From Candidatus Eiseniibacteriota bacterium (GTDB taxonomy: Bacteria > Arandabacterota > Arandabacteria > Arandabacterales > Arandabacteraceae): DNA of 41,714 bases. The DNA lies in assembly GCA_043810925.1 (NCBI GenBank), contig JBDRNT010000034.1, positions 1 through 41,714 on the forward strand, given 5' to 3'. Both the position numbers and the translations under genes were made by a program. Numbering within the stretch: the first letter of the stretch is position 1; each line of letters begins with the position of its first letter. Under the pieces are notes generated by a model, which was given only the letters and a program-made list of their open reading frames with translations, searched no databases and had not been told where the DNA came from. Below, piece after piece: positions 2,598 to 26,193 of the stretch.

Positions 2598-5240
2598 CTA
2601 TCTGACCATGTTCACGGTCTTGGTCTTGACCCCGGCATCGGTCTCAAGCCGCATGAAATAGACACCGCTTGCCACGCGTCTACCCTCATCGTTTGTGCCG
2701 TCCCATGCCAGTTGCTGCCTGCCCGAATCCGCATAACGTGACTCGAGCGACTTCACCTTCCGCCCTGCCAGATCATAGACATCGAGTGAGACCTGAGACG
2801 GCCGCGAAAGCACAAATGTGATCGTAGTCGCGGCGCTGAAAGGATTCGGATAGTTGGCAAACCCGGTGACAATCCCCGGCTCCCGCGCATCGACTCCGCT
2901 TAAGTCCGGAAGCGTCGTGAGATCGAAGGAGTGCATCGACCGTCCATGCGTCCCGGCAACCAGCGTACGGCTCGGATTGTGGAGATTAAGGTCAAAGACC
3001 GGGACGGCCGGAAGCCCGGTCCCAAGCATCGACCATTCGGCGCCGGGCACCTCCGTGCAGTAACAGCCGACGTCGGTTCCCACAAAAAGCCGCGAGGGCT
3101 GGGCGGGATCCACCACGATCGCATTTACAGGTGCACCGGGGAGGTTCTCGGTAATATCAGTCCAGGATGCCCCGTAATTTTCGGTTCGATAGACATAGCC
3201 GATGTTCTCATCCCACCTGAGGCCCGAGAACGTCACATAGGCGATTCCAGGACCCGTGGGGTCCGTGGCAACACGCGTCACCCAGCGATTCGGGAGCGAA
3301 GCGGAAATGTTGGTCCAGTTGTCACCGCCGTTCTGCGTTACCCATACATTGGAGTCATCGGTACCGACATAAATCACATCGGGGTCGGCGGGTGAGACCG
3401 CGATTGTCGTGATCGTACCGAAGCCGGCACCCTGATCGCCGTTTGTCAGGTCACCGCTTATGGGATCCCACCAGTCGGCTCCGTCTGTCGACTGATAGAC
3501 CCTGTGGCTTCCATAGTAAAGCGTCAGGTGATCGGACGGATCCATCACCACGGGCGTCATCCAGTTTGTCCGGTCGTCGCCGTTGATACCGTCCAGGGCA
3601 TAGGTCCAGTTACCTGCGAAATTGGTCGACTTGTACAGATAGCCGTACTGGTACTCCGCATATATTATGTCGGAATCGGTCGGATCCACGATGGAGTAAA
3701 ACCCGTCACCACCCAGTATGTTTTCCCAATCGGAGGTCCCCCCCGTAGGGGTCCTGAGCGTACCGTTATCCTGCGTACCGCCGTAAAGCCGCGCCGGGTT
3801 AAGATAGTCGATCTCGATCGCATAGAACTGATTTGTAGGCTGGTCGTAGAGCTTGCTCCAGGACGTGCCGGAGCTTTGCGACACATAGATGCCGCCATCG
3901 TTCCCCTCGAAGATCCGGGTGTGGTCGTTGGGATCGAAGGCCATGGCGTGATGATCCACATGGTTGCTCGAGCCGACCTCGGACCAGGTGGAGCCACCGT
4001 TCTCCGAGCGGTAAAACGGCACACCCAGGGCAAAGACCCGGTTGGGATCGGCGGGATCGACCCTGATCTGTCCGAAGTACCAACCGAAGGAGCTATGGAT
4101 GTTCTCCAGCACCGCGTCATTGGTCCGCGTCCAGGAGTCACCACCGTTTGTCGACTTGTAGACCTGGGCATAGTAATACGGGCTCGGAATGTCATAAATG
4201 GCGTAGATCACATTGGGGCTCGAGGCGCAAACCGAAAGACCTATCCGGCCGACATCCGGGCCTGACGGCAGCCCGCTCGTAAGCTCCACCCACGTGTCCC
4301 CACCATCGTAGGACCGGTAGATGCCGCTTGTGACGCCACCCGACCTGCGATATGTGAGTCCGCGACGCCGTTCCCACATTGCGGCGAAGACGGTATCCGG
4401 TCTGGTGGGATCAATGGCAACATCAGTCCCGGCCGTTGAATCGCTGACCGAAAGCACGAGATCCCATGAGGACCCCGCGTCAGGCGAGCGATAGATCCCA
4501 CGCTCGGGATTGGTACCGAAGAGACTTCCCGTCCCTGCAACCCAGATCCGGTCCGTGTCCATCGGATCGATAACAATACGGGCGATATAGCGGGTCGCTT
4601 CGAGACCGATGTAGCTCCAGTTTGCTCCACTGTCAGTTGACTTATACATGCCCATGCCGAACCAGCTGAAACTCGGGGCATTGGCCTCACCTGTCCCGAC
4701 GTAGATAGTATTCGGAGACTCGGGATCAATGGCAATGGCTCCGATAGTAAGGACCGGCAGATCATCTGAAATCGGATCCCACGTGCTACCGCCGTCACCG
4801 GATCTGAAGACACCGCCGCTCGCCATCGCTGCATAGATGATATTGCTGTTGGTCGGATGAAACGCAAGGTCGGTCACCCGGGCACCGATGTTACTCGGTC
4901 CCTCCTCCACCCAACTCCCTGCGAGCGCGGCCTGTCCCCTCTTCGCCTCAAAACGTAGTGCCTGGGCCTCGGCCACGGCCTGCTTGAGCTGATCGTAGTC
5001 AATCAGCCCATAGGGATAGGCGCGCTGATTGAAGCCCCAGCCGCTCGGAAAGGCACCCGGCTCATAGCGCTTGCCCTCAGCCGCAAGCTCGGCCTTCATG
5101 TCCGCCTTGAGTTGGGCCGCTCTCTGAGTGACTTCCTCCCGGGTCAGACTGCCGCCCCGCTCGCCGGGTCTCTGGATAAACCAGAGAGCCGCGGCCGCGA
5201 CCACTACGACTAAGACCGTCAGCATCAATCTGCGCTTCAT
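2598..5240 (-). CDS. secreted Asp-box/BNR (Vps10/sortilin-like) beta-propeller protein, glycosyl-hydrolase-like, with C-terminal FlgD-Ig/T9SS-type domain
   Basis: N-terminal hydrophobic segment; about 11 SxDxGxxW-type repeats (RSGDGGSTW, KSTDSGANW, RSYDGGDTW...); GGTQDNG and GTHGRS motifs; tail NYPNPF...VYDLAGRKV...WDG...SGVYF; AGGAG RBS. Confidence 0.85.
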   Translation of the reverse strand: MKRRLMLTVLVVVVAAAALWFIQRPGERGGSLTREEVTQRAAQLKADMKAELAAEGKRYEPGAFPSGWGFNQRAYPYGLIDYDQLKQAVAEAQALRFEAKRGQAALAGSWVEEGPSNIGARVTDLAFHPTNSNIIYAAMASGGVFRSGDGGSTWDPISDDLPVLTIGAIAIDPESPNTIYVGTGEANAPSFSWFGMGMYKSTDSGANWSYIGLEATRYIARIVIDPMDTDRIWVAGTGSLFGTNPERGIYRSPDAGSSWDLVLSVSDSTAGTDVAIDPTRPDTVFAAMWERRRGLTYRRSGGVTSGIYRSYDGGDTWVELTSGLPSGPDVGRIGLSVCASSPNVIYAIYDIPSPYYYAQVYKSTNGGDSWTRTNDAVLENIHSSFGWYFGQIRVDPADPNRVFALGVPFYRSENGGSTWSEVGSSNHVDHHAMAFDPNDHTRIFEGNDGGIYVSQSSGTSWSKLYDQPTNQFYAIEIDYLNPARLYGGTQDNGTLRTPTGGTSDWENILGGDGFYSIVDPTDSDIIYAEYQYGYLYKSTNFAGNWTYALDGINGDDRTNWMTPVVMDPSDHLTLYYGSHRVYQSTDGADWWDPISGDLTNGDQGAGFGTITTIAVSPADPDVIYVGTDDSNVWVTQNGGDNWTNISASLPNRWVTRVATDPTGPGIAYVTFSGLRWDENIGYVYRTENYGASWTDITENLPGAPVNAIVVDPAQPSRLFVGTDVGCYCTEVPGAEWSMLGTGLPAVPVFDLNLHNPSRTLVAGTHGRSMHSFDLTTLPDLSGVDAREPGIVTGFANYPNPFSAATTITFVLSRPSQVSLDVYDLAGRKVKSLESRYADSGRQQLAWDGTNDEGRRVASGVYFMRLETDAGVKTKTVNMVR

Positions 5241-6808: not shown

Positions 6809-8527
6809 CTAGTACTTGAAGATGCTGTCCCCGATAAACTCCCTCAGAATCGAATTCGGCGGCACTTCCCTGCCGGGGATCGTGAGGAAATAGGAAAGGA
6901 AGCGTAGCAGCCTCCGGGTTTCGGCATACTCCTCAGCATCGAGTTCTATCTTCTTCAGGAGCTTCTCAGCGTATCCCTTGAGCACACACAGCTCATACAC
7001 CAGCGAGGAATCGAACATCACGTCGGCCTCCTCCTGGTGCGGGAATACGTACTGATCCTCCCCCCTTCGCACAGACCGCCACCTCGAGAGCGTATCACGG
7101 GCCGCATAGCCGCGGAACAGGTTGTCCCTTACGATCCGCCTCAGTTTCCTTATGTCCGTCGTGGGAACCCGGTTGTGAAAATCGATATTGAGCTGCGACA
7201 GCGCACTCACATATATCTTGAACTTCATGATCGACGGGATCGACGGCGTCAGTGCCGGATTGAGTGCGTGTATGCCCTCAAGTATCAGTGTCTCCTCACT
7301 ATCAAGGCTGAACCTGCGTGAACCGCACCGCTTACCCGATCGGAAACTGAATCTCGGCACCTTGACCTCCTTGCCTCCGATCAGGTCGAGCAACTGCCGG
7401 TTTAGGAGTTCTATGTCAATCGCGTCGGGCGCCTCAAAGTCGTACTCACCGGTCTCGTCTCGGGGAGTTTCCTCCCTGTCGAGGAAATAGTCGTCGAGCG
7501 AAAGCGTCGCGTTCTTAAGTCCGTTGACACTCATCTGGATCGCAAGCCGTTTGGAGAAGGTGGTCTTCCCCGAACCCGACGGGCCCGATATCAGAATCAG
7601 CCTCGGTCTTGTGAGCTTCGACGCAATCGTATCCGCAAGATGCGCGATCTTCTTCTCGTGAAGAGCCTCGGCCATGCGGACGGTCTGACCGCCCTCGCCC
7701 GCCTCTACGATCTCATTGATATCGCCGACCTCGCCGATCCCGAGTATCTTCCCCCACTGGACGTGCTCCCTGAAAACCTCGGCCATCTTCTTCTGCTCTT
7801 CGAATTCAGGGATGCTCATGGGATGTTCATACCGAGGAAATCGCAGTATGAATCCCGGCGGGTAGTAGCGCAGCTCAAAGCGACTGACGTACCCCGTGCT
7901 CGGCGCAAGACAACCATAGAAGTAATCTGTGAATTCGCCGAGTTTGTATATGCTGACGGTGGGCTCGGTCCGGTACTTAAGCACTCCGACCTTATCCATC
8001 TGCCCGTCCCGCTCGAATATGGCGACTGCCTCTTCTACGCTTACCTCCTGCCGCACAAATGGCTCATCGGCATTGACGATCTCTCTCATCCTTGCGTGAA
8101 GTTTCTCGATATCCTCGGTTTCGAGGTGGCGGCCGAGACCTATCTCACAGTAGTAGCCTTTACTAAGGGAGTGTCTAACATAGACATTCGGGTTCTCGAA
8201 CACCTCACGTGCGGCCCTGGTCATTACGAAGGTGAGGCTTCGCCTATAGACGCTCATGCCATCGGCCGTGTCGATCGTAACAAACACCAGCGTCCCGTCA
8301 CACTCGAGCGGTGATTTGAGTTCCCTCACCTTGTAGTTGTACTTCGCAGCTATTACCGGATACTCGGTGTCCACCTTGTTCTTCTTAAGAATCTCAAGCG
8401 CGGTCGTCCCGACCGGCACGGTCAGATCCCCAACCCCTTCAACCGTCACCTTGATCGTGGTCTCTTTAGACCTGGCCTTCCTGGTCTTTGTCTGTTTCAC
8501 CTTTGCTCTTTCACTTGCTTTGCTCAA
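6809..8527 (-). CDS. uridine/nucleoside kinase with N-terminal threonyl-tRNA-synthetase-like (TGS/SAD) domain
   Basis: ThrRS-like N-terminus (VYRRSL, GYYCEI, DYFYG); P-loop GPSGSGKTT; LSLDDYF, EGIHALN, RRIVRD and C-terminal NSILREFIG typical of this fusion family; TTGA overlap with upstream gene. Confidence 0.85.
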   Translation of the reverse strand: MSKASERAKVKQTKTRKARSKETTIKVTVEGVGDLTVPVGTTALEILKKNKVDTEYPVIAAKYNYKVRELKSPLECDGTLVFVTIDTADGMSVYRRSLTFVMTRAAREVFENPNVYVRHSLSKGYYCEIGLGRHLETEDIEKLHARMREIVNADEPFVRQEVSVEEAVAIFERDGQMDKVGVLKYRTEPTVSIYKLGEFTDYFYGCLAPSTGYVSRFELRYYPPGFILRFPRYEHPMSIPEFEEQKKMAEVFREHVQWGKILGIGEVGDINEIVEAGEGGQTVRMAEALHEKKIAHLADTIASKLTRPRLILISGPSGSGKTTFSKRLAIQMSVNGLKNATLSLDDYFLDREETPRDETGEYDFEAPDAIDIELLNRQLLDLIGGKEVKVPRFSFRSGKRCGSRRFSLDSEETLILEGIHALNPALTPSIPSIMKFKIYVSALSQLNIDFHNRVPTTDIRKLRRIVRDNLFRGYAARDTLSRWRSVRRGEDQYVFPHQEEADVMFDSSLVYELCVLKGYAEKLLKKIELDAEEYAETRRLLRFLSYFLTIPGREVPPNSILREFIGDSIFKY

Positions 8528-9057
8528 TGCTCGATCTCCCTGATCCGCGTCTTGTATGCCGCTCGCACCTCTGAGAAGAACTCGTAATACATACCACTCT
8601 TGAAATCAGGAAAACCCCAATCATAGGGTTTCCACCCCTTATCATAATAGAGTGTAGGATCGGCGTACACCCCTTTTCCAAGATAAATCTTCTGGCTGAG
8701 GAACTTGCCTGATACAAGTATGAGTTTGTGGAAGTCCAGGTAGCCGGGATCGATGTTTACGCGTCGCTTCCCGCCCGATGCGAACGCCTGCTCGATCCCG
8801 TTGGCGGCCAGTTTGGCGTCGACGATCTTCCCCGGATCGATGAGGTCCCGGAAAGCGTAGAATATCCGCTTGAGGGTGCCGCCCATTTCATCTTCGTAGT
8901 AGCCGGTCGCATCGAAACTGAACAGCTGCGACTTGAGTTCTATGGGGCCAAACCGGTGTTCGAGCTCCGCCTCCAGGGGTTCAAGCAGATCGCGGCCGGC
9001 GAAGATCACACCCATAAGAAGCTTCACGGGCCGGGGCTCTTTGAGTCCACTCATCAT
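8524..9057 (-). CDS. DUF4416 family protein
   Basis: YYEDEMG, RRVNIDPGYL, IYLGKGVYAD and WGFPDF motifs; ATGA overlap with the upstream stop supports start 9057. Confidence 0.8.
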   Translation of the reverse strand: MMSGLKEPRPVKLLMGVIFAGRDLLEPLEAELEHRFGPIELKSQLFSFDATGYYEDEMGGTLKRIFYAFRDLIDPGKIVDAKLAANGIEQAFASGGKRRVNIDPGYLDFHKLILVSGKFLSQKIYLGKGVYADPTLYYDKGWKPYDWGFPDFKSGMYYEFFSEVRAAYKTRIREIEH

Positions 9058-9896
9058 GTATGTCTTCTTTCCATCAAGAGTCGCTGTGCCAGTTCCGTCC
9101 ACTCACCGCTTATGCCGAATTCCTCCCGTATGACACTTTCTACGCCATCTTTGAGCCTACGCTTACTGATCGTCCCGCGGGATGTGAACTTGAAGAAATC
9201 CCGTCTGAAATAGATGTGCCCCTGTGGCGTCATCATGGTCAGACAGATGTTGTTGAGCGTGGGCTTGGTGAAGGAATCGATCCAGTAGCCCTCGAAGTCC
9301 TCCTCGCGCACGGGTGTATCAACAAATCCGTATCTCCACTTACGGCCGGAAGCATCTTCGGTCCACAACCGGAACCGGTTGTCTTCCTCCCTTTCGATCT
9401 CGACCACTGCATGCGGAAACGTTACGGTTGTCCTTCCCCTGGTGGGAAGCTCGATCACTTCATAGAGAGCATACCCGGGATCGATCATGTACTTCGCGCC
9501 GCATTCCTTCACGATTACCAGGCAGTGTACGTTCGGGCCCATATGCATGTCGGCCATCACTTTATAACAGTCGAATCCCGGCGCAGTCAGCATCCTTTCG
9601 AGAAGGAATGTCAGCGAGAAACACGTGCCGCCGAAGTTCCGTCCGAAGTGGTCGTCGACAACTTCAAGCGGAAACCGCATCGACTGATGAGGTCCGGCGG
9701 AGCCGGCGTTCTTTATGATCTTGCTGATGTTTTCATACGGAAAACGCGCGAGATGACGCGTTAATTCCCTCATGAAGGCGACGCCACTTGCCTGCCGGGC
9801 CATGCCGGTACGAGACAGAAAGAGGCGGGTGGCCTCTTCACCCCTTACGGTTTCTATCAAGGCAGCCCCCGATACTTGTAACAAATCCGACAACAC
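9054..9896 (-). CDS. arylamine N-acetyltransferase family protein
   Basis: FPYEN motif and Cys-His-Asp triad contexts GGTCF, VHCL, IDPG; start position uncertain. Confidence 0.75.
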   Translation of the reverse strand: MLSDLLQVSGAALIETVRGEEATRLFLSRTGMARQASGVAFMRELTRHLARFPYENISKIIKNAGSAGPHQSMRFPLEVVDDHFGRNFGGTCFSLTFLLERMLTAPGFDCYKVMADMHMGPNVHCLVIVKECGAKYMIDPGYALYEVIELPTRGRTTVTFPHAVVEIEREEDNRFRLWTEDASGRKWRYGFVDTPVREEDFEGYWIDSFTKPTLNNICLTMMTPQGHIYFRRDFFKFTSRGTISKRRLKDGVESVIREEFGISGEWTELAQRLLMERRHT

Positions 9897-9899
9897 CTG

Positions 9900-9940
9900 T
9901 TGACACGGCCTAATTCTATTATAAACTTACATTGTTTCAA
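9900..9940. promoter_or_regulatory. overlapping divergent sigma70-like promoters
   Basis: + strand TTGACA (9900-9905)-16 bp-TAAACT (9922-9927) facing the dehydrogenase operon; - strand TTGAAA (9940-9935)-16 bp-TAGAAT (9918-9913) facing the acetyltransferase. Confidence 0.45.
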
Positions 9941-10019: not shown

Positions 10020-11201
10020 ATGCCCAAGCACACAGTTGTTACGATGCCCGGCGACGGCATCGGCAAGGTTGTTCTTAAGGAGGGTCTGAAGTTGCTGGAT
10101 GCGGTCGGCTTCGAGGCCGACTATGTGTTCGCCGATATCGGATGGGAATTCTGGGTGACCGAGGGAAATCCTCTACCCAAGCGAACGCTTGATCTTCTGG
10201 AGAAGCACCGGCTGGGTCTCTTCGGAGCCATTACGTCCAAACCCAAGGATCAGGCGGCAAGTGAGCTGGCGCCCGAGCTCAAGGGAAAGGGCCACGTCTA
10301 CTATAGCCCCATCGTCGCTATGAGACAGTACTTCAATCTCGACCTCTGCATCCGGCCATGCAGGACATTCAAGGGTAATCCTCTTAACTTCGTAAGAAAG
10401 ACCAGGGATAGTTACGAAGAACCCGCAGTCGATGTGGTGGTATTCAGGCAGAACACGCAGGGGCTCTACGCAGGGGTTGAATGGACGAACCCGCCTCCCG
10501 AAGTCAGGAAGGCACTTGAAACTCACCCCAAGATGGCCGCCTTCAAGGACGTTCCCAGCGAGGACCTTGCCATCTCGACAAGGATCTTCTCCCGCGGGGC
10601 ATGTCACAGGATAATCGATGAGGGCTTTAAGTACGCCAGGAAATTCGACTATAAGTCCGTGACCATATGCGAGAAGCCGAACGTGATCCGCGAGACCTCG
10701 GGAATGATGCGTGAGGAAGCGCGGAAAATACATAAGGACTACCCCGACATTGCGCTGTGGGAAACCAACATCGATGCCCAGATGATGTGGCTCAACAAGA
10801 ATCCGGAAGACTACGGCGTGATCGTGAGCAGCAACATGTTCGGTGACATCGTTTCCGACGCTTTCGCCGGTCTGGTGGGTGGTCTGGGGTTCGCATGCAG
10901 CGCCAACGTGGGCAGGAACTGTGCGGTGTTTGAGCCCACTCACGGCTCGGCGCCCAAGTATGCCGATCTCGAACCTTCAATCGTAAATCCGATGGCGATG
11001 TTCTTAAGCAGTGCAATGATGCTCGATTACATCGGTGAAGAGAACAAGGCCAAGCGCATCAGAGATGCCATTGCCCGGGTGGTTGAAGAGGGCAAGATCC
11101 GGGCATATGACATGATGAAGCTTAAGGGCGGACCGGAAGTCCTGGGCCAGGGCGCAGCAAGCACCAGTCAGATCACCGATGCGGTGACAGCAAAACTGTA
11201 G
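10020..11201 (+). CDS. isocitrate/isopropylmalate/homoisocitrate dehydrogenase family enzyme, probably NADP-dependent
   Basis: [57 protein letters not shown] motifs; GGAGG/GAGGT RBS. Confidence 0.9.
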
Positions 11202-11221
11202 AGGCTTCTTGAGGAGGAATG

Positions 11222-13027
11222 ATGGGATCGACTCTTATCGAGAAGATAATCTCGGAGCACGCGGGCAAAAGCGCGAGGGCCGGGGATGTGGTGGACATGA
11301 GGATCGATGTTAGAATCGCCAGGGACTTTGGCGGGGCGAACGTGGTAAAGAACATCGAAGACCACGGACTTGGCATAGACAATCCCGAAGTCACCTTCTT
11401 CACCTTTGACTGCAATCCCACCGGGTCCGACCAGCGCTACGCGGCCAACCAGCAGCGAATCAGGCTGTTTGCCGCCAAACACAATGTCAAGGTCTATGAT
11501 ATTACTGAGGGGATCGGAACCCACATTGCTGTGGACGAAGGCCTGGTGGGCCCCGGCACGACCGTGGTTTCAACCGACTCCCATGCCAACATCGTCGGTG
11601 CAGTCGGTGCCTTCGGGCAGGGTATGGGCGACCAGGACATAGCCCATGCTTTCGCAAAGGGCCGTGTCTGGTTCAGGGTACCGCCGACAGTAAGAATAAC
11701 CATCGTGGGCCGCAGACCGGAGGGGACGACGGCCAAGGACGTCACCCTGGCGCTTCTTCAGAAGATTGGCGCGGGTGGACTTCTGGGTTTTGCAGCTGAA
11801 GTCTATGGTGAGGCCGCCGACGCGATGGATCTTTCCGAGAGGATCACCCTGGCCTCAATGGCTACTGAGATGGCCGGTATCATCATCCTTTTCCCGCCGA
11901 GCGAATCGGTGCTTTCAAAGCTTAAGGCCCTGACGGGAAAGACCTACACCGCCATCGCCGCTGACGCCGATGCCACATACGAGCGCGAGATAAAACTCGA
12001 TGTGAGCGATCTTAAGCCCCTGGTATCGCTGCCCGGCAATCCCGAAAACGTCGTGGCTCTGAGTGAAGTCATGGGGACCAGGATCCATTCGGGGTTTATC
12101 GGCTCGTGCACGAACGGCCGCTATGAGGACATGCTGGAGGCGGCACAGGTGCTCGAGGGCCGAAAGGTCGCACCCGGGGTCGTCCTAAAGATTGTCCCCG
12201 CAACCAACCGGATCTGGCGCAGGTGTCTTGAAGAGGGAATCATAAAGACGTTTAAGGATGCAGGCGCCCTTGTCGGCAACGCGGGCTGCGCGGGTTGTGC
12301 CGCCGGCCAGGTGGGCCAGAACGGCCCTGGTGAGATAACGATAAGCACAGGCAACCGCAATTTCCCCGGCAAGCAGGGCCAGGGCAAGGTCTATCTGGCA
12401 TCACCCGGGGTCGTGGCGGCATCGGCCGTTCGCGGCTTGATAGCGACACCGATGACGATCGATACGGATATCGCCGCGCGGGCGGCCGAGAAGGAGACGG
12501 CTGCCCAACCCAGACCCCAGCCGGCGGCCCAGCCGGCTACACCTCTCAAGGTCAAGGGTAAAGTGTGGGTGATCGCCGAAGACAACATAGACACGGACAT
12601 GATCTACCACAACAGGCACCTGGCCGTTACCGAAATCAGTGAGATGGGCAGTTACTGCTTCGGCAATCTCGAAGGCTGGAAGGACTTTCCCGCGAAAGTC
12701 AAGCCGGGTGATCTCGTCATAGTCGGCAGCAATTTCGGCTGCGGATCATCCCGGCAGCACGCCGTGGATTGCTTCAAGAGTCTGGGCGTCCAGGCGGTCA
12801 TCGCCAGGTCGTTCGGCGCCATCTACGAGCGAAATGCCATAAACGCAGGGCTTCCGATAGTGCAGGGAGATATCACAAGCCTTAAACTCAAGAATGGTGA
12901 TGTCATAAGCGTGGACTTCACAAGCGGCGAAGTGACAAGCGAAGCCACGGGCAAGAAGACCGACGTGAAGCCCTTCTCGGATGTTCAGCTTGAAATCTAC
13001 AAACGCGGCGGTCTGCTTTCCGGATAG
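11222..13027 (+). CDS. aconitase-family hydro-lyase, fused LeuC-like large and LeuD-like small subunits
   Basis: DSH, GSCTNGR, GCAGC (three Fe-S cysteines), STGNRNF, then a Pro/Ala/Gln linker and a swivel domain DNIDTD...NFGCGSSR; start may be 11219. Confidence 0.9.
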   Translation: MGSTLIEKIISEHAGKSARAGDVVDMRIDVRIARDFGGANVVKNIEDHGLGIDNPEVTFFTFDCNPTGSDQRYAANQQRIRLFAAKHNVKVYDITEGIGTHIAVDEGLVGPGTTVVSTDSHANIVGAVGAFGQGMGDQDIAHAFAKGRVWFRVPPTVRITIVGRRPEGTTAKDVTLALLQKIGAGGLLGFAAEVYGEAADAMDLSERITLASMATEMAGIIILFPPSESVLSKLKALTGKTYTAIAADADATYEREIKLDVSDLKPLVSLPGNPENVVALSEVMGTRIHSGFIGSCTNGRYEDMLEAAQVLEGRKVAPGVVLKIVPATNRIWRRCLEEGIIKTFKDAGALVGNAGCAGCAAGQVGQNGPGEITISTGNRNFPGKQGQGKVYLASPGVVAASAVRGLIATPMTIDTDIAARAAEKETAAQPRPQPAAQPATPLKVKGKVWVIAEDNIDTDMIYHNRHLAVTEISEMGSYCFGNLEGWKDFPAKVKPGDLVIVGSNFGCGSSRQHAVDCFKSLGVQAVIARSFGAIYERNAINAGLPIVQGDITSLKLKNGDVISVDFTSGEVTSEATGKKTDVKPFSDVQLEIYKRGGLLSG

Positions 13028-13035
13028 GAGGACAC

Positions 13036-14301
13036 ATGGGCCGGACATTTGCACAGAAACTGCTTGCCCTTAAAAGCGGCAAGAAGAGTGTTGATGTTAG
13101 TGAGATCGTTACCGTGAGACCAGATCATCTGTTAACACACGACAATACGGCTGCGATAATCTCAAAGATCGGCGATGAACTCAACACCTACGGTATCGCC
13201 GACACCGATATCCCGGTCATCGTCATCGACCACGTCGTACCCGCAAGCAACGAAAAGACGGCCGCCAACCACAAGAAGATAAGAGAGTTCGTGTCGAAGT
13301 TCGGTGTTAAGCATTTCTATGACGCCGGCCATGGCATCTGCCACCAGGTCCTGATCGCCGAAGGCCATGCTCTGCCGGGCTCGCTCATCGTGGGAAGCGA
13401 TTCACACACATGTACCTACGGGGCCGTCGGGGCGTTTGCCACCGGGATTGACAGGACCGAGGCGGCGTCAATTTTCTTAACGGGGCAGACCTGGCTTAAG
13501 GTCCCGCAGTCGATGAAGATAGAGGTCAAGGGTAGGCTCACAGGAGCAGCGTCGGCCAAGGATCTGATCTTAAGGATAATCGGTGACATCAGCGCGAGCG
13601 GAGCCAATTATCTTTCGGTTGAGTTTCACGGTGATACCGCGTCGCTAACGATTGAGGACCGGATGACCATCGCGAATATGGGTGTCGAGATGGGCGCGAA
13701 GAACGCCGTCTTCCCTGTCGATGAGGCTACCGGGGCGTTCTTGAAACAGGCGGGAGTGAGTTCGGCGTGGAAATCCGTCTGGGCGGATCCGGACGCGGAG
13801 TACATCAGGACTCTGACATACGATCTCGGCAAGATCGTGCCTACCGTCGCCAAGCCGCACAGCGTCGATAATTGTGTACCAGTCACCGAATTAGTTGGGC
13901 TTCCGATTGAGCAGTGTCTGATCGGCACATGCACCAACGGAAGGCTCGGAGACCTGCGCACAGCTGCGGCGATTCTTAAGGGCAAACAGGTTCACAAGAA
14001 CACCAGGCTCCTAATACTGCCTGCGAGCCGGGAAGTCATGCTTGAGGCACTCAAAGCGGGCATACTCCAGACCCTGATCGAAGCCGGCGGCATCGTTCTC
14101 CCGCCGGGCTGCGGTCCCTGCCTGGGAGCGCACCAGGGTGTGCTGGCTCCCGGCGAGAAATGCTTGAGTACGGCAAATCGTAACTTCAAGGGCAGAATGG
14201 GTTGTGTGGATGCTGAGATATACCTTGCGAGCCCCGCGACCGTAGCGGCGAGTGCAATCGAGGGAAGCGTAGTCGATCCGGGGAAGGTGGTAGACCTATG
14301 A
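13036..14301 (+). CDS. homoaconitase / 3-isopropylmalate dehydratase family large subunit
   Basis: THDN, IDH, GICHQ, GSDSHT, GTCTNGR, GCGPC, STANRNF, YLASP motifs; AGGAGG RBS. Confidence 0.9.
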   Translation: MGRTFAQKLLALKSGKKSVDVSEIVTVRPDHLLTHDNTAAIISKIGDELNTYGIADTDIPVIVIDHVVPASNEKTAANHKKIREFVSKFGVKHFYDAGHGICHQVLIAEGHALPGSLIVGSDSHTCTYGAVGAFATGIDRTEAASIFLTGQTWLKVPQSMKIEVKGRLTGAASAKDLILRIIGDISASGANYLSVEFHGDTASLTIEDRMTIANMGVEMGAKNAVFPVDEATGAFLKQAGVSSAWKSVWADPDAEYIRTLTYDLGKIVPTVAKPHSVDNCVPVTELVGLPIEQCLIGTCTNGRLGDLRTAAAILKGKQVHKNTRLLILPASREVMLEALKAGILQTLIEAGGIVLPPGCGPCLGAHQGVLAPGEKCLSTANRNFKGRMGCVDAEIYLASPATVAASAIEGSVVDPGKVVDL

Positions 14302-14789
14302 AGGTATGGAAGTATGATGATAATATAAATACCGATATGTTGTTTCCGGGCAAGTACACTTATACCTGTAGCACCGCCGAGGAGATAAGACCGCACCTGC
14401 TTGAGGACCTTGATCCGGATTTCGCAGGGCAGGCCCAGGCAGGGGATATCGTGATGGCAGGGGATAACTTCGGATGTGGGAGCTCGCGGGAGCAGCCGAC
14501 GGTGGGGCTTAAGGCAGTGGGGATCAAGGCAGTCGTCGCCCGGAGCTTCGCGAGAATCTTCTACAGGTCGGCAATAAACCAGGGGCTGATTCTGGTCGAG
14601 TGCCCGGAGGCTGTGGACGCCTACCATGAAAGTGACCCGGTTGACGTCGATCCCGAGGAAGGACTTATAACGGTGGCCGGCACGGAATTCAGGTTTCCGA
14701 AGCTGCCGCCGGAGATCATTGCCATCAGAGACGCTGGCGGTCTGCTTGCTTATGTTAGAAAAGAACTCACAGCCAGGGGGACGCGGTAA
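14298..14789 (+). CDS. homoaconitase / 3-isopropylmalate dehydratase family small subunit
   Basis: DNINTD-x3-PGKY, NFGCGSSREQ, SFARIFYR, GGL motifs; ATGA overlap with the large subunit. Confidence 0.9.
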   Translation: MKVWKYDDNINTDMLFPGKYTYTCSTAEEIRPHLLEDLDPDFAGQAQAGDIVMAGDNFGCGSSREQPTVGLKAVGIKAVVARSFARIFYRSAINQGLILVECPEAVDAYHESDPVDVDPEEGLITVAGTEFRFPKLPPEIIAIRDAGGLLAYVRKELTARGTR

Positions 14790-16000
14790 TGGCAAAAGGC
14801 GAAGCGGGGAAACGCGGAAAAGATGTCAGGTCGGATTGCTGGATTGCGATTGATAAGAAGAACTCCGGCGGCATCTCGCTTAAGGTGACATCGAAAGTCG
14901 AGAGCATGTACGGCGATTCGATCAGGGCAACGCTTGAAGAGGGGCTTAAGTTCTTCGGAATCAAGGATGCGACAGTGGAGCTGGAAGACCGGGGGGCTCT
15001 GCCGTTCGGGTTGATCGCACGCTTGGAAGCCGCGGTTAGAAGGCTTAATCCCGCTGAAGAGAAGCAACTCCTACCGGAGATGTTTTCGGAATGTACGTAC
15101 GCTACGACCCGGGAGAGGATGAGGCGCTCAAGGCTTTATCTCCCCGGTAACGAACCCAAGTTCGCGGTCAATGCCGGTATCCATCGTCCAGATGGCGTCA
15201 TTTTAGATCTCGAAGACAGCGTCCACCCTTCGGAGAAGGATGCAGCGCGCGTGATGGTGCGAAACGCACTAAGACAGGTTGATTTCATGGGTGCCGAACG
15301 CATGGTGCGAATAAACCAGGGCGAGATGGGTCTTCTGGATCTCGAGTTCGTGGTACCGCATAACGTCCATATCATCCTGATACCCAAGTGCGAAAGCGGC
15401 GAGGATGTGAAAACAGTCGACGCCAGGATCCAGGAGATAAGAAAACGCGAAAAGATCGATTCCGATGTGTTTCTTATGCCCATCGTCGAATCGGCTCTCG
15501 GGGCCTTGCGGGCGTATGAGATCGCGACGGCATCGCCCAGTACTGTAGCTCTAACCATAGGCCTTGAGGATTACACGGCAGATATCGGCACGCGGCGCAC
15601 AACCGAGGGGCGCGAGAGTTTCTGGGCACGCTCCCAGGTGGTAAACGCCGCGCGTGCCGCCAAGGTGCAGCCGATCGATACCGTGTTTTCCGATGTGCAG
15701 GACATGGATGGGCTTCGCGAGAGCGTGGTTGAAGCCAAGTCGCTCGGTTTCGAAGGTAAGGGCTGTATTCACCCCAGACAAATCGGTGTCATACATGAAG
15801 CCTTTGCGCCGGAGGATGCCGAGATCGAACGCGCAAAGCGGATCGTGCTCGCCTTCCAGGATGCCGAATCCAGGGGGCTTGGAGTGGTCTCACTCGGAAG
15901 CAAGATGATTGATCCTCCGGTCGTAAAGCGGGCACTCCACACCGTGGACCAGGCGATCGCTACAGGAAAGCTCGATGAGGATTGGAGGGACCAGAAATGA
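14789..16000 (+). CDS. citE: fused citrate-lyase acyl carrier (CitD-like) and citryl-CoA lyase beta (CitE-like) protein
   Basis: N-terminal ~90 aa CitD-like (SKVESMYG, DRGAL, IARLEAA); then RRSRLYLPG, LDLEDSV, VRIN, IPK, VESA, GLEDY, GKGCIHPRQ, MIDPP; TAATG overlap. Confidence 0.88.
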   Translation: MAKGEAGKRGKDVRSDCWIAIDKKNSGGISLKVTSKVESMYGDSIRATLEEGLKFFGIKDATVELEDRGALPFGLIARLEAAVRRLNPAEEKQLLPEMFSECTYATTRERMRRSRLYLPGNEPKFAVNAGIHRPDGVILDLEDSVHPSEKDAARVMVRNALRQVDFMGAERMVRINQGEMGLLDLEFVVPHNVHIILIPKCESGEDVKTVDARIQEIRKREKIDSDVFLMPIVESALGALRAYEIATASPSTVALTIGLEDYTADIGTRRTTEGRESFWARSQVVNAARAAKVQPIDTVFSDVQDMDGLRESVVEAKSLGFEGKGCIHPRQIGVIHEAFAPEDAEIERAKRIVLAFQDAESRGLGVVSLGSKMIDPPVVKRALHTVDQAIATGKLDEDWRDQK

Positions 16001-17556
16001 AAACCGATTCCGACCTTGTTCGAAATGCAGCCGGAAGGCTGGTTCCAACCGTCGCAAACGGAAAGGAACAGGTCCCTTACAAGGGCGTAGCCAAGTATAA
16101 GCCCGAAGGCACGAAGGCGGCCCCCCCTATCGCTTCATGCAGGGACTACCCGTCCGATGGTAACAAGGTGGTGAAGGACTTAAAGACCGCGCTTAAGGCC
16201 GCCGGGCTTAAGGACGGGATGACGATATCCACGCATCATCACCTCAGAGACGGCGACCTGGTCGCAAACATGATATTCGACATTGCAGCTGAGATGGGTG
16301 TTAAGGACCTGATGTGGTTTCCCAGCGCCTCCTTCCCCTGCCAGGCCAAGAACATCGACCACATGGATAGCGGTGTGATCCATCACATCGAAGGAAGTAT
16401 GAACGGTCCCCTTGGGCGCTACTGCTCCGAAGGTAAGATGCGAGGCATGGGAATGCTGAGGTCACACGGCGGCAGATACCAAGCCGTCCAGGACGGCGAG
16501 GTGCATATCGATATCGCCGTCATTGCGGCACCCACGTCCGATCCCTTCGGTAACTCAAACGGTCTCACCGGTCCCTCGGCCTGTGGTCTTCTGGGTTTCG
16601 CCCTGGCCGACTCACAGTATGCGGACAAGGTCATCGTTGTAACCGATAATCTCATTCCTTTCCCGTGCATTCCCTGGCAGATACAGGGCAACTATGTCGA
16701 CCATGTGGTAGTGGTGGATAAGCTCGGCGATCCTGAGAAGATCATCTCGGGGACGACGCAGATCACCCGGAGCCCAGACCGGCTCCTCATTGCCGAGATG
16801 ACCGCGCAGTTCGTCAGGGAAGCAGGACTCATCAAGGACGGCTTCTCCTTTCAGGCTGGTGCGGGCGGTACATCGCTAGCCTTCGCCATATTCTTAAAGG
16901 AAATGATGAAGGATGCGGGCGTGAAGGCGAGGTTCATACGTGCGGGGAGTACCAAGTATCAGGTTGAGATGCTCGAAGAGGGCCTCACCGACTATATCCT
17001 CGATGGCCAGACGTTTGATCTTGAGGGCATACGGTCGATGCGTGAGAACCCCGGTCATGTGTGGACGAGTCCGTTTACGAGCTACAACTATCACGGGAAG
17101 GGCAATTTCGCTTCGCTCTTAGATATCGTAATCCTCGGTGCCACCGAGGTCGATGTTAATTTCAACGCCAATGTCGTGACTCACTCCGATGGGCTTTTGC
17201 TTCACGGTATCGGCGGGTGGCAGAACTGCCTCTTCGGTAACTGCGTGATCCTACCCATCCCATCATTCAGAGACCGGATCCCGGTCCTGGTGGATGAGGT
17301 TACGACGCTTTGCGGTCCCGGGGAGTTGATAGATGTCATCATTACCGAACGCGGGATAGCGATAAATCCGCTCAGGAAGGATCTCCTCGATGCAGTCAAA
17401 GGATCCGATCTTCCGATAAGGTCGATCGAGGACTTAAAGGCCGGCGTCGAGAAACTCTGTGGCGGTAAGCCTCAAAAGCCGAAGTTTAAAGACAAGGTCG
17501 TGGCGGCAATCAAGTGGGTCGACGGGACCCTCATCGACTCCGTCCGCCAAGTCTAA
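15997..17556 (+). CDS. citF: citrate lyase alpha subunit / citrate CoA-transferase (CitF-like)
   Basis: LKDGMTISTHHHLRDGD, RSHGGR, FSFQAGAGG, LGATEVDVNFN, GIGG, TERGIAINP, VDGTLID; GGAGG RBS and ATGA overlap at 15997. Confidence 0.92.
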   Translation: MKTDSDLVRNAAGRLVPTVANGKEQVPYKGVAKYKPEGTKAAPPIASCRDYPSDGNKVVKDLKTALKAAGLKDGMTISTHHHLRDGDLVANMIFDIAAEMGVKDLMWFPSASFPCQAKNIDHMDSGVIHHIEGSMNGPLGRYCSEGKMRGMGMLRSHGGRYQAVQDGEVHIDIAVIAAPTSDPFGNSNGLTGPSACGLLGFALADSQYADKVIVVTDNLIPFPCIPWQIQGNYVDHVVVVDKLGDPEKIISGTTQITRSPDRLLIAEMTAQFVREAGLIKDGFSFQAGAGGTSLAFAIFLKEMMKDAGVKARFIRAGSTKYQVEMLEEGLTDYILDGQTFDLEGIRSMRENPGHVWTSPFTSYNYHGKGNFASLLDIVILGATEVDVNFNANVVTHSDGLLLHGIGGWQNCLFGNCVILPIPSFRDRIPVLVDEVTTLCGPGELIDVIITERGIAINPLRKDLLDAVKGSDLPIRSIEDLKAGVEKLCGGKPQKPKFKDKVVAAIKWVDGTLIDSVRQV

Positions 17557-18897: not shown

Positions 18898-19746
18898 TCA
18901 CCGGGACCGGGGCACGAGGTGGTAATTCTTTATGCGGTCGAGCCGATACACCTTCTCTCTTGCATCACCATGGCAAAACGCCGCCAGGTACACGATACCT
19001 CCGTAACCCAGGATCGCGCGCGGTGTGACTTCACGCGGCTCTTCGCCCTTTGTGCCTCCTGCGTAGACCATGACTATCCGATGCTTTTGCTGGATCGCAG
19101 AGGCGAGGTCCTCAAAACCGATGGGCGGTTTGGTCTCATAGATACGTGAGCTCTCAAACACGATGGGCTTTGAAAGGTTACCGAGATCCGCAATCGTCTT
19201 TACGCTGGCTGCCTCGGCGAGGAGCGTAAGGAAGACGTCCCTGGTCAGTCTTGCATCGGCCAGGGCGCGGTGTTTCTGCCCCATTGAAATCCCGAGCATG
19301 GTCGCCAGATTCACAAGGCTATAGCTCGGAAGGAGAGGCATCACAGCCTGAGCAAGCAACTTTGTGTCGAAGATCAGGTGGGTCGGGAACGCGAGCCCGA
19401 GCCGTATCAGATCCACACCGATAAAGCCTACGTCGAAGGGAGCGTTCTGAGCTATGAGGATGGTATCGGACGATCCGAGGAAGGCGAGGAAACGCGGCAT
19501 CACGGCTTCCACCGTGGGCTGGCCCCGGACCATCTGATTGGTTATGTGATTGACCTGCTGTACCTCGGGTGGAATATCGCTCTCAGGATCGATCAGCTGC
19601 TCAAACACCGCAATCTCATCCCCAGCGGCCGTAAAGCGGGTCGCACCGATTTCGACGAGTCTCGCCGACACGGGGTAGAGTCCAGTCGTCTCAGTATCAA
19701 ACGCGATGAAGGTGGCCTTATCCATCTCTAGGTCGGGTGTTGCCAT
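18898..19746 (-). CDS. DEDDh 3'-5' exonuclease (DnaQ-like) fused to a C-terminal WYL domain
   Basis: FDTETTG, QNAPFD, HRALADA; C-terminal Y...REVTP...YLAAFCH...YRLDRI; AGGAG RBS; TATAAT at 19772-19767 on -. Confidence 0.87.
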   Translation of the reverse strand: MATPDLEMDKATFIAFDTETTGLYPVSARLVEIGATRFTAAGDEIAVFEQLIDPESDIPPEVQQVNHITNQMVRGQPTVEAVMPRFLAFLGSSDTILIAQNAPFDVGFIGVDLIRLGLAFPTHLIFDTKLLAQAVMPLLPSYSLVNLATMLGISMGQKHRALADARLTRDVFLTLLAEAASVKTIADLGNLSKPIVFESSRIYETKPPIGFEDLASAIQQKHRIVMVYAGGTKGEEPREVTPRAILGYGGIVYLAAFCHGDAREKVYRLDRIKNYHLVPRSR

Positions 19747-19820
19747 CAACGTGACTCCTGGTTGCTATTATACTAAGGTGATTATAACGAATCGCGGCTA
19801 CACTCTCCAGAGCAATATCG

Positions 19821-26155: not shown

Positions 26156-26193
26156 CGGATCCCCCAATGGTTTTGGGTACGCAATACACCTAT

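Follow-up and report, generated by a model that had tools for sequence, protein, structure and literature searches.

A gene at positions 10020 to 11201 of a 41,714-nt stretch from Candidatus Eiseniibacteriota bacterium (contig JBDRNT010000034.1; the whole stretch is called the window below, and its source genome is 91.7% complete) encodes a dehydrogenase that, judged from its sequence, is a full-length PF00180 member of a large clade outside the curated models of isocitrate dehydrogenase (IDH), 3-isopropylmalate dehydrogenase (IPMDH), and homoisocitrate dehydrogenase (HICDH). Its residues and gene neighborhood suggest that it uses NADPH to carboxylate 2-oxoadipate reductively, as part of an upper aminoadipate pathway run in reverse, a reading that we hold tentatively, with almost as much confidence as doubt. 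Reductive carboxylation to homoisocitrate is the leading hypothesis, and an isocitrate dehydrogenase serving a lyase-based reductive branch is its serious rival. Substrate, direction, and physiological role are what we infer here from the neighboring genes and from the features of the enzyme itself, listed with their equivalents in E. coli IDH (Icd):

10020..11201, + strand: dehydrogenase gene, an open reading frame (ORF) of 393 amino acids (aa) for a beta-decarboxylating dehydrogenase of an NADP-type clade without a characterized member
10299..10325, + strand: substrate loop YYSPIVAMR, residues 94–102 (Ser96 = Icd Ser113, Ile98 = Asn115, Val99 = Val116, Arg102 = Arg119)
10446..10469, + strand: RQNTQGLY, residues 143–150 (Arg143 = Icd Arg153, Gln144 = Glu154, Tyr150 = Tyr160)
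10941..10964, + strand: coenzyme motif HGSAPKYA, residues 308–315 (Lys313-Tyr314 = Icd Lys344-Tyr345)
11106..11120, + strand: Tyr363 and Lys367, which complete the coenzyme residue set

The original prediction had named three motifs between 10299 and 10964. This interval is free of stops in translation and lies inside the 393-aa ORF, which is preceded by a GGAGG ribosome-binding site, and the translation reads YYSPIVAMR, RQNTQGLY, and HGSAPKYA as predicted. Conservation was followed by aligning the 120 best-matching homologues from the database (73–100% identical to the window enzyme), and all figures for the dehydrogenase family below refer to this set. Tyr94, Ser96, Pro97, Ile98, Val99, Arg102, Gln103, Arg143, Gln144, Asn145, Thr146, Tyr150, Tyr314, Tyr363, and Asp364 are identical in 120/120; Lys313 is found in 119 of the 120, and residue 367 is a Lys in 78 sequences and an Arg in the other 42. 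In this alignment the three motifs are family signatures, not chance resemblances. RQNTQGLY had been read as a replacement for the usual RENTE, which stood in part: Gln144 is family-wide (120/120), but the second Gln is a minority feature (7/120, vs RQNTEGLY in 113/120).

Aligned with E. coli Icd at 33% identity, the dehydrogenase has a complete catalytic set. Arg102, Arg112, and Arg143 correspond to Arg119, Arg129, and Arg153, Tyr150 and Lys219 to Tyr160 and Lys230, and Asp252, Asp276, and Asp280 to Asp283, Asp307, and Asp311; the catalytic Tyr/Lys, the three Arg, and the three Asp are all kept across the family. The roles of these Icd residues as substrate Arg, catalytic Tyr/Lys, metal Asp, and 2'-phosphate ligands are textbook knowledge. 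Four of the five Icd 2'-phosphate ligands are also retained, with Lys313, Tyr314, Tyr363, and Lys367 at the positions of Lys344, Tyr345, Tyr391, and Arg395, and the fifth, Arg292', aligns with Asn. Both comparison motifs of the prediction are seen in solved enzymes: the NAD-type HGSAPDIA is present in Thermus HICDH and in the NAD-IDH 6LKY, and the NADP-type Lys-Tyr occurs as HGTAPKYAG in E. coli Icd and as HGSAPKYAG in Thermus thermophilus IDH (2D1C). Among the dehydrogenase genes of the loci fetched for the neighborhood analysis, 147 of 155 carry HGSAPKY. Use of NADP(H) is thus predicted with good support and is the best-supported part of the finding. The other eight of the 155 genes have HGSAP followed by Ser, Arg, Thr, Gly, His, or Ile and then His or Tyr in place of Lys-Tyr, which hints at an altered coenzyme preference in a sub-clade.

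Family membership was assessed with curated models. Pfam PF00180 (Iso_dh) matches residues 5–389 with 250.7 bits (cut-off 27), and none of the 16 NCBIfam matches reaches its curated cut-off. The top two are methanogen AksF2 (252.6, cut-off 540) and AksF (244.4, cut-off 500; NF040619/NF040626). The best IDH model scores 231.3 (cut-off 510), the prokaryotic NADP-IDH models TIGR00183 and NF005425 score 164 vs 567.3 and 157.4 vs 490, and the LeuB model TIGR00169 scores 169.8 vs 353.2. LeuB identity was rejected on that last score and on RQNTQG, where E. coli LeuB has RELTGGIY; a housekeeping IDH was also rejected, as genomes with this clade also have canonical NADP-IDHs or monomeric IDHs, in 6/9 of those compared below. 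The best PDB sequence match is the Methylococcus NAD-IDH 6LKY (3e-55), followed by Thermus HICDH (8e-49), Thermus IDH 2D1C (3.6e-42), S. pombe HICDH (1.4e-39), and E. coli Icd (~1e-37).

An AlphaFold2 model built from 33 sequences reached a pLDDT of 89.9 and a pTM of 0.90, with residues 147–156 as the sole poorly defined stretch. Foldseek returned at least 409 PDB chains at E <= 0.001, and the roughly 40 chains among the matches listed are all IDH, HICDH, or IPMDH. The modeled fold is certainly that of IDH/HICDH/IPMDH. These three groups lie at the same structural distance (E ~3e-31, TM 0.76–0.81; S. pombe HICDH 3TY3 at TM 0.77 and 30% identity), so the fold is uninformative on substrate, and assignment from the model was set aside as unhelpful.

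The clade is large and variously named. At least 597 stretches (598 candidates) in a species-representative genome collection encode a relative. The best 80 of these, at 68–91% identity, belong to Gemmatimonadota, Ignavibacteria/Melioribacteraceae, Bacteroidota, Planctomycetota, Latescibacterota, Eisenbacteria, Chloroflexota, Myxococcota, and Thermoplasmatota bins. After clustering at 50%, identity to the nearest full-length representatives is 55% and 50%. Homologues carry the database names 'isocitrate dehydrogenase (NAD+)', '3-isopropylmalate dehydrogenase', and 'family protein'. Seven distant relatives at ~40% identity (P0147, P0149, P0152, P0154, P0155, P0158, and P0236) are Iso_dh fusions, with a MoCF_biosynth (CinA-like), RraA-like, or peptidase M20 domain as partner.

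The substrate loop departs from Icd at one position. Asn115 of Icd, which with Ser113 binds the isocitrate gamma-carboxylate, is an invariant Ile98 in the dehydrogenase family (120/120). In Thermus HICDH the segment FFGAIRYLR places Ile84 at the Icd Asn115 position and Arg85 next to it, aligned with Ile98 and Val99. By sequence the loop is a hybrid, with the Ser and Val of IDH and the Ile of HICDH, and without the Thermus Arg. Ahead of it lies an insert of ~15 residues with near-invariant Lys74, Pro75, and Lys90 and a conserved Lys76, and an Icd-like insert reads YAGVEW (YAGxEW in Icd).

Each characterized relative shares part of this pattern. Thermus thermophilus HICDH (1X0L, 3ASJ), the second-best PDB sequence match, resembles the window enzyme in its fold (Foldseek E 3e-31, TM 0.78/0.91), the Ile at the Icd Asn115 position, the RxNTEGLY motif, and the catalytic set, but it carries HGSAPDIA (NAD-type) instead of HGSAPKYA and Arg85 instead of Val99, and it lacks both the pre-loop and the YAGVEW inserts. 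Thermus HICDH works oxidatively in lysine synthesis. E. coli Icd (type I) has the same NADP ligands (Lys344, Tyr345, Tyr391, Arg395), Ser113, Val116, Arg triad, Tyr160, Lys230, and metal Asp residues, together with the locally most similar substrate loop and the YAGxEW insert; it differs in Asn115 (Ile), Glu154 (Gln), Arg292' (not kept), its other inserts, and the low TIGR00183 score. The homodimeric NAD-IDHs of Methylococcus (6LKY) and Xanthomonas (6M3S/6LTF) are the best matches in sequence and in fold (2.6e-31), but their motifs are S-x-N, RENTEG, and HGSAPDIA, and neither insert is present.

The dehydrogenase is the first of six tightly packed genes, with spacings of 17, 8, −4, −1, and −19 bases (the last becomes −4 if CitF starts at 15997). 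The features of this operon, with bit scores and cut-offs in parentheses, are:

9900..9927, + strand: promoter-like site TTGACA-16-TAAACT in the 123-bp gap upstream of the dehydrogenase gene, 10/12 consensus matches
11219..13027, + strand: fused large plus small aconitase-family hydro-lyase, 602 aa, Pfam Aconitase and Aconitase_C
13036..14301, + strand: LeuC/HacA-type large subunit, 421 aa, hacA_fam 521.7 (385.7), IPMI_arch 510.5 (410.15)
14298..14789, + strand: LeuD/HacB-type small subunit, 163 aa, LEUD_arch 162.5 (108.95), overlapping the preceding gene by 4 bases
14789..16000, + strand: CitD-CitE fusion, 403 aa, acyl-carrier-like and citryl-thioester-lyase-like, Pfam ACP and HpcH_HpaI
15982..17556, + strand: CitF-like alpha subunit, an acyl-transferase, Pfam CitF 457.9; the ATG at 15997, after GGAGG, is the likelier start

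The region as a whole holds seven promoter-like sites vs 4.2 ± 1.8 in shuffles, so the site at 9900..9927 is a weak hint. The hydro-lyases of the window reach subfamily models only. The 602-aa protein is above cut-off for PRK00402 (400.1, cut-off 385) and hacA_fam (386.2, cut-off 385.7) and below it for aconitase PRK07229 (311.3, cut-off 612) and fungal homoaconitase TIGR00139 (247.7, cut-off 529.9). The 421-aa large subunit falls below the HacA_Meth and LEU2 equivalogs, and the 163-aa small subunit below the leud and HacB equivalogs. In the small-subunit domains, the specificity loops are KYTYT and RHLAV; the loop rule (YLRT/YLVM) was set aside as substrate evidence, its alignment being uncertain. 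The CitD-CitE fusion is below cut-off for citE (270.5, cut-off 443.4) and citD (59.9, cut-off 63.5). A Ser in an RSDC context, conserved in 36/37 of the family, lies one column off Ser14 of E. coli CitD (ESGD) in a MAFFT alignment, which makes it an ambiguous candidate for the carrier Ser. CitC, CitG, and CitX were not found in the 91.7%-complete source genome, in searches with positive controls in E. coli.

To follow the gene neighborhood, 156 loci were fetched (at least three contigs twice) and neighbors were counted by tblastn; 70 loci have at least 8 kb on both sides. The counts, in all loci and in these 70, are:

aconitase-family neighbor: 115/156; 65/70
HDIG-domain neighbor, ~180 aa: 105/156; 62/70
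CitDE neighbor: 78/156; 52/70
CitF neighbor: 72/156; 52/70
PrpD-family neighbor: 54/156; 43/70
any lyase neighbor: 57/70

The clusters are of two types. Type A clusters, in Gemmatimonadota, Ignavibacteria, Bacteroidota, Latescibacterota, and some Planctomycetota, combine a PrpD-like protein, far under the PrpD cut-offs, with a fused hydratase of ~650 aa. This hydratase scores 740–885 bits on the homoaconitase model TIGR00139 (cut-off 529.9) in all three proteins tested. The model is over cut-off in 3/5 relatives' genomes and was not reached in 14 control genomes, including Thermus, Deinococcus, and M. jannaschii. Type B clusters combine the 602-aa fused protein with the LeuCD-like pair and are found in the window and in L001, L011, L021, L026, L030, L073, and L075 among others. 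All 23 gene-mapped clusters hold two hydro-lyases, either PrpD-like plus Lys4-like or fused plus LeuCD-like, and none of the 23 holds an AcnA/AcnB-sized gene.

The cleavage enzymes beside the dehydrogenase vary. In 6/156 loci an ATP-citrate lyase (ACL)/citryl-CoA lyase (CCL)-like set adjoins it, consisting of succinyl-CoA synthetase (SCS)-like and citryl-CoA-lyase/citrate-synthase-like genes; the L026 protein matches ACL alpha 6HXJ_B (1.8e-35) and citryl-CoA lyase 6HXP (2.4e-28), and the L030 protein matches SCS beta. In the Acidobacteriota locus L071 (11275-13365) the dehydrogenase stands alone with a family-III CoA-transferase and a 253-aa protein consisting only of a citrate synthase C-terminal domain, a pair that may be a third kind of cleavage system. 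Upstream, 6/156 loci (L006, L010, L173, L193, L198, and L200) carry an AADAT/LysN-family gene on the same strand at a distance of 31–163 bases. Among solved structures its product is closest to PH0207 (4.9e-78), followed by human kynurenine/alpha-aminoadipate aminotransferase (4e-75) and Thermus LysN (6e-55). The L006 and L010 dehydrogenases are 73–74% identical to that of the window. In the Gemmatimonadota locus L043, a gene for a 32%-identical aminotransferase heads a type A cluster.

The HDIG-domain protein is the most faithful neighbor of the dehydrogenase (e.g., L002:10331-10894, L058:5676-6239), and no PDB or NCBIfam relatives beyond HDIG were found for it; its 43%-identical counterpart in the source genome (G000:C35:28054-28548) is unlinked to the operon and adjoins a DUF4438 gene. 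An omega-aminotransferase and an aldehyde dehydrogenase adjoin the dehydrogenase in L078 and L161, and an aldehyde dehydrogenase alone in L032 and L012. These neighbors are compatible with lysine 6-aminotransferase plus aminoadipate-semialdehyde dehydrogenase and equally with catabolism of gamma-aminobutyrate. A link to saccharopine-pathway genes was not found in the 156 loci. No informative PDB match was found for a 673-aa gene in the Cloacimonadota locus L205.

On this basis we propose a route. The dehydrogenase would reductively carboxylate 2-oxoadipate with CO2 and NADPH to homoisocitrate. Two aconitase-family hydro-lyases would then catalyze one half-reaction each, from homoisocitrate to cis-homoaconitate and on to homocitrate, and the CitD-CitE/CitF lyase would split homocitrate into 2-oxoglutarate and acetate. 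An anaerobic protein degrader could in this way pass lysine-derived 2-aminoadipate into central metabolism through a reversed upper aminoadipate pathway. The choice of homoisocitrate and 2-oxoadipate as substrate pair is favored by Ile98, the Lys4-type partner in relatives, the two-enzyme isomerization, the coexisting IDH and aconitase, and the upstream aminotransferase. The direction is suggested by the neighbors: since three nonhomologous cleavage systems, of kinds that split hydroxy-tricarboxylates, occur beside the dehydrogenase, it most likely feeds them, and an enzyme that feeds cleavage would carboxylate reductively. An ATP-using lyase would be senseless for synthesis, which likewise points to cleavage. 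From gene context, the dehydrogenase most likely works as a reductive carboxylase. Measured against the original prediction of an NADP-linked homoisocitrate-type enzyme suited to reductive carboxylation, NADP(H) is well supported and carboxylation is favored by context, while homoisocitrate is the leading candidate substrate.

Stereochemistry bears on the last step. The known CitE, citryl-CoA lyase, and ACL enzymes are Si-specific; the synthases of 2-oxoacid elongation are of the Re type, and the homocitrate used there is the (R) form. If a Si-type lyase were paired with isomerization on the arm derived from acetyl, a dehydratase would be required for which an ordinary aconitase could not stand in, which is also why PrpD exists for methylcitrate. 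This would account for the obligatory second hydro-lyase if the substrate is something other than citrate, and it would also predict (S)-homocitrate. With somewhat more reserve than for the carboxylase itself, we suggest that the module is a so far undescribed, oxygen-independent, CO2-fixing route that would digest lysine-derived 2-aminoadipate via (S)-homocitrate to 2-oxoglutarate and acetate, and that it would occur in hundreds of species or more, from sediments and soils and from many phyla. We know of no pathway that uses (S)-homocitrate.

Several observations weigh against the homoisocitrate reading, and many of them favor instead a dedicated NADP-IDH that would convert 2-oxoglutarate via isocitrate and citrate to oxaloacetate plus acetate or acetyl-CoA, either in a citrate-lyase version of the reductive tricarboxylic acid (TCA) cycle or in a fermentation route for glutamate-family amino acids. 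We regard this alternative, in either role, as rather unlikely but serious. In the protein, Ser96 is retained, and Ser96, Val99, and the ensuing LRQ..L..C.RP stretch are E. coli Icd-like. Val99 replaces Arg85, the substrate determinant of Thermus HICDH, which recognizes the distal carboxylate. When residues 61–130 alone were searched against the PDB, all matches were weak and to IDHs of the E. coli type (12 sequences at E <= 1). Fold and YAGVEW insert resemble IDH, and the top query TM-score (0.81) belongs to E. coli Icd. The HICDH models are missed widely (252.6 vs 540; 244.4 vs 500), and S. pombe HICDH 3TY3 is a weaker sequence match (1.4e-39) than the NAD-IDH 6LKY (3e-55). In the operon, CitF scores 497.3 on TIGR01584 against a cut-off of 501.45, ~4 bits short of a citrate lyase alpha subunit, and the window has neither a fungal-type homoaconitase (its hydro-lyases score 247.7 and 301.1 on TIGR00139, both below 529.9) nor a linked aminotransferase. 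The aminotransferase link is limited to 7/156 loci in about two lineages. KorAB-like (2-oxoacid:ferredoxin oxidoreductase-like) genes adjoin the dehydrogenase in 9/156 loci and, together with the six ACL-like sets, resemble the textbook reductive TCA set; a fumarate-reductase-like flavoprotein adjoins it in one archaeal locus. The source genome encodes OadA and OadB, which suit oxaloacetate as a product, and its sole strong saccharopine-dehydrogenase-domain gene adjoins an Orn/DAP decarboxylase, a position that assigns it to a polyamine pair. A Si-type lyase would, moreover, demand a new stereochemistry or (S)-homocitrate, which is unprecedented. For Ignavibacterium, an unconventional reverse TCA cycle with CitF and CitE-CitD has been raised (PMC3362086).

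What speaks for homoisocitrate over isocitrate is the invariant Ile at Icd Asn115, the failure of every IDH model (best 231.3 vs 510), and the rest of the gene content. Canonical NADP-IDH or monomeric IDH occurs alongside in 6/9 further carrier genomes, and the source genome has a separate aconitase, so a full parallel set of isocitrate enzymes would be redundant. In relatives, the partner hydro-lyase is a match to fungal homoaconitase rather than to aconitase, and there are two hydro-lyases per mapped cluster; to our knowledge no citrate/isocitrate system needs two. Other 3-substituted malates (3-methylmalate, 3-isopropylmalate, or a longer homologue) are improbable substrates. In that case the operon would serve to shorten the 2-oxo acid that corresponds (for instance 2-oxobutyrate or 2-oxoisocaproate), or its enzymes would be broad and iterative. 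Ile98 and Val99 are hydrophobic at both positions that recognize the alkyl group in IPMDH, the source genome lacks LeuA and LeuB, and citramalate lyase is the one other CitDEF-type enzyme known to us. The KYTYT and RHLAV loops are also without the Arg of the methanogen homoaconitase loop, but the alignment behind this rule is uncertain. Ser96 with near-invariant Lys74 and Lys90 (Lys76 being conserved) suggests instead a polar or charged distal group, and the Lys4-type partner and aminoadipate-aminotransferase-type neighbor indicate a C7 tricarboxylate. Least probable is a biosynthetic module in which 2-oxoglutarate or oxaloacetate would be joined to an acetyl unit by the lyase-like proteins and an oxidative dehydrogenase would yield NADPH with 2-oxoadipate or 2-oxoglutarate. 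The enzyme order is that of 2-oxoacid elongation, homocitrate and isopropylmalate synthases were not found in the source genome, and lysine synthesis, too, could use an aminotransferase of the aminoadipate type. Against this, free acetate is thermodynamically an unfavorable starting point for condensation; the SCS-like subunits in some relatives, as in ATP-citrate lyase, fit cleavage only; the source genome owns a citrate synthase; and CitC, CitG, and CitX were not found in it, at 91.7% completeness.

The genomes were compared for parallel enzymes. The source genome has a second PF00180 gene (G000:C55, L082:645-1928) with the motifs SANVAMR, RENTEG, and HGSAPRM, which is probably its real IDH; this protein has an N-terminal extension of ~70 aa and is below all NCBIfam cut-offs. 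Separate aconitase and citrate synthase genes are also encoded. Genes of the LeuA/homocitrate-synthase type, isopropylmalate synthase, LeuB, and a PrpD-like gene were not found in this genome, and without LeuA and LeuB the LeuCD-like pair would not serve leucine synthesis. Four of nine further carrier genomes (G001, G002, G007, and G009) hold an NADP-IDH above its NCBIfam cut-off, and two hold a monomeric IDH (G003, Latescibacterota; G006, a Melioribacter roseus bin). G008 has further, unclassified PF00180 genes, and a second IDH candidate was not seen in G004 or G005. The best aminoadipate-aminotransferase homologue of the source genome is 34% identical and unlinked, on contig C171. The Orn/DAP decarboxylase and the saccharopine-dehydrogenase-fold protein beside it form a carboxynorspermidine-type pair (G000:C37, L124:8837-11751), and OadA/OadB of the Na+-translocating oxaloacetate decarboxylase lie at G000:C172 (L126:3877-6869).

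Known systems match the module in part. The upper alpha-aminoadipate pathway of fungi and Thermus has the same chemical steps and an isomerization split over two enzymes, as documented for homocitrate in fungi and for methylcitrate (PMC3556520). Its homoaconitase and aminotransferase recur as the Lys4-type hydratase of relatives and the aminoadipate-aminotransferase-family gene of six loci. The module differs in that a CitDEF-, ACL-, or CoA-transferase/CCL-type cleavage enzyme replaces homocitrate synthase, and also in the NADP coenzyme, the presumed reverse direction, and the PrpD-like protein that takes the place of aconitase in relatives. Citrate lyase CitDEF with CitC/CitX/CitG (E. coli, Klebsiella) and citramalate lyase have the same carrier, lyase, and transferase modules, but here CitD and CitE form one protein, none of the three models reaches its cut-off, CitC/CitG/CitX were not found, and the lyase genes are joined with a dehydrogenase and hydro-lyases. 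The reductive TCA segment is approached by the KorAB-like and ACL/CCL-like genes in some relatives' clusters and by the proposed NADPH-linked carboxylation; in contrast to it, two noncanonical hydro-lyases stand for one aconitase, the dehydrogenase lacks Asn115, and canonical IDH and aconitase are encoded elsewhere in the same genomes. The Ignavibacterium album genome paper describes CitF with a CitE-CitD fusion as an ATP-independent citrate lyase (PMC3362086), and the available part of the Melioribacter paper does not mention a citrate lyase of this kind. No published description of the module or of a homocitrate lyase was found in the literature searched, which comprised main texts and not supplements.

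If the homoisocitrate reading is true, the enzyme would be the first NADP(H)-linked homoisocitrate-type dehydrogenase acting as a carboxylase, and the module would be a widespread, unannotated catabolic one, in at least 597 stretches from Gemmatimonadota, Ignavibacteria, Bacteroidota, Planctomycetota, Acidobacteriota, Eisenbacteria, and some archaeal bins. Pipelines label its genes 'isocitrate dehydrogenase (NAD+)', '3-isopropylmalate dehydrogenase', and 'citrate lyase', and reconstructions would therefore mis-assign TCA, leucine, and citrate-fermentation capacity to these phyla. If isocitrate is the substrate instead, the clusters would encode a citrate-lyase-based reductive TCA branch with its own noncanonical enzymes, so far a speculation made in 2012 for Ignavibacterium. 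The dehydrogenase is small and soluble-looking.

Public sequencing runs hold small shares of the sampled words (0.05–0.08), and none holds more than 8%. In one groundwater RNA library, two short contigs are identical to 12070-12262 and 13187-13351 in the hydro-lyase genes, which is no proof of transcription, and nothing specific was found over the dehydrogenase gene in that library. Other genes of the window were recorded as well. Divergently upstream of the operon, at 6809-9896 (−) and in L001, L011, and L021, lie three genes for a uridine-kinase/PRK domain protein with a threonyl-tRNA-synthetase-like N-terminal part, a DUF4416 protein, and an arylamine-N-acetyltransferase-family protein. A Sortilin-Vps10-repeat protein with a type IX secretion (T9SS) sorting tail at 2598-5240 (−) and a gingipain-like Peptidase_C25 with an FlgD-Ig domain at 23819-26167 (−) both point to a protein degrader from the FCB group. 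The gene at 18898-19749 (−) encodes a DEDD (RNase_T) exonuclease in fusion with a WYL domain.

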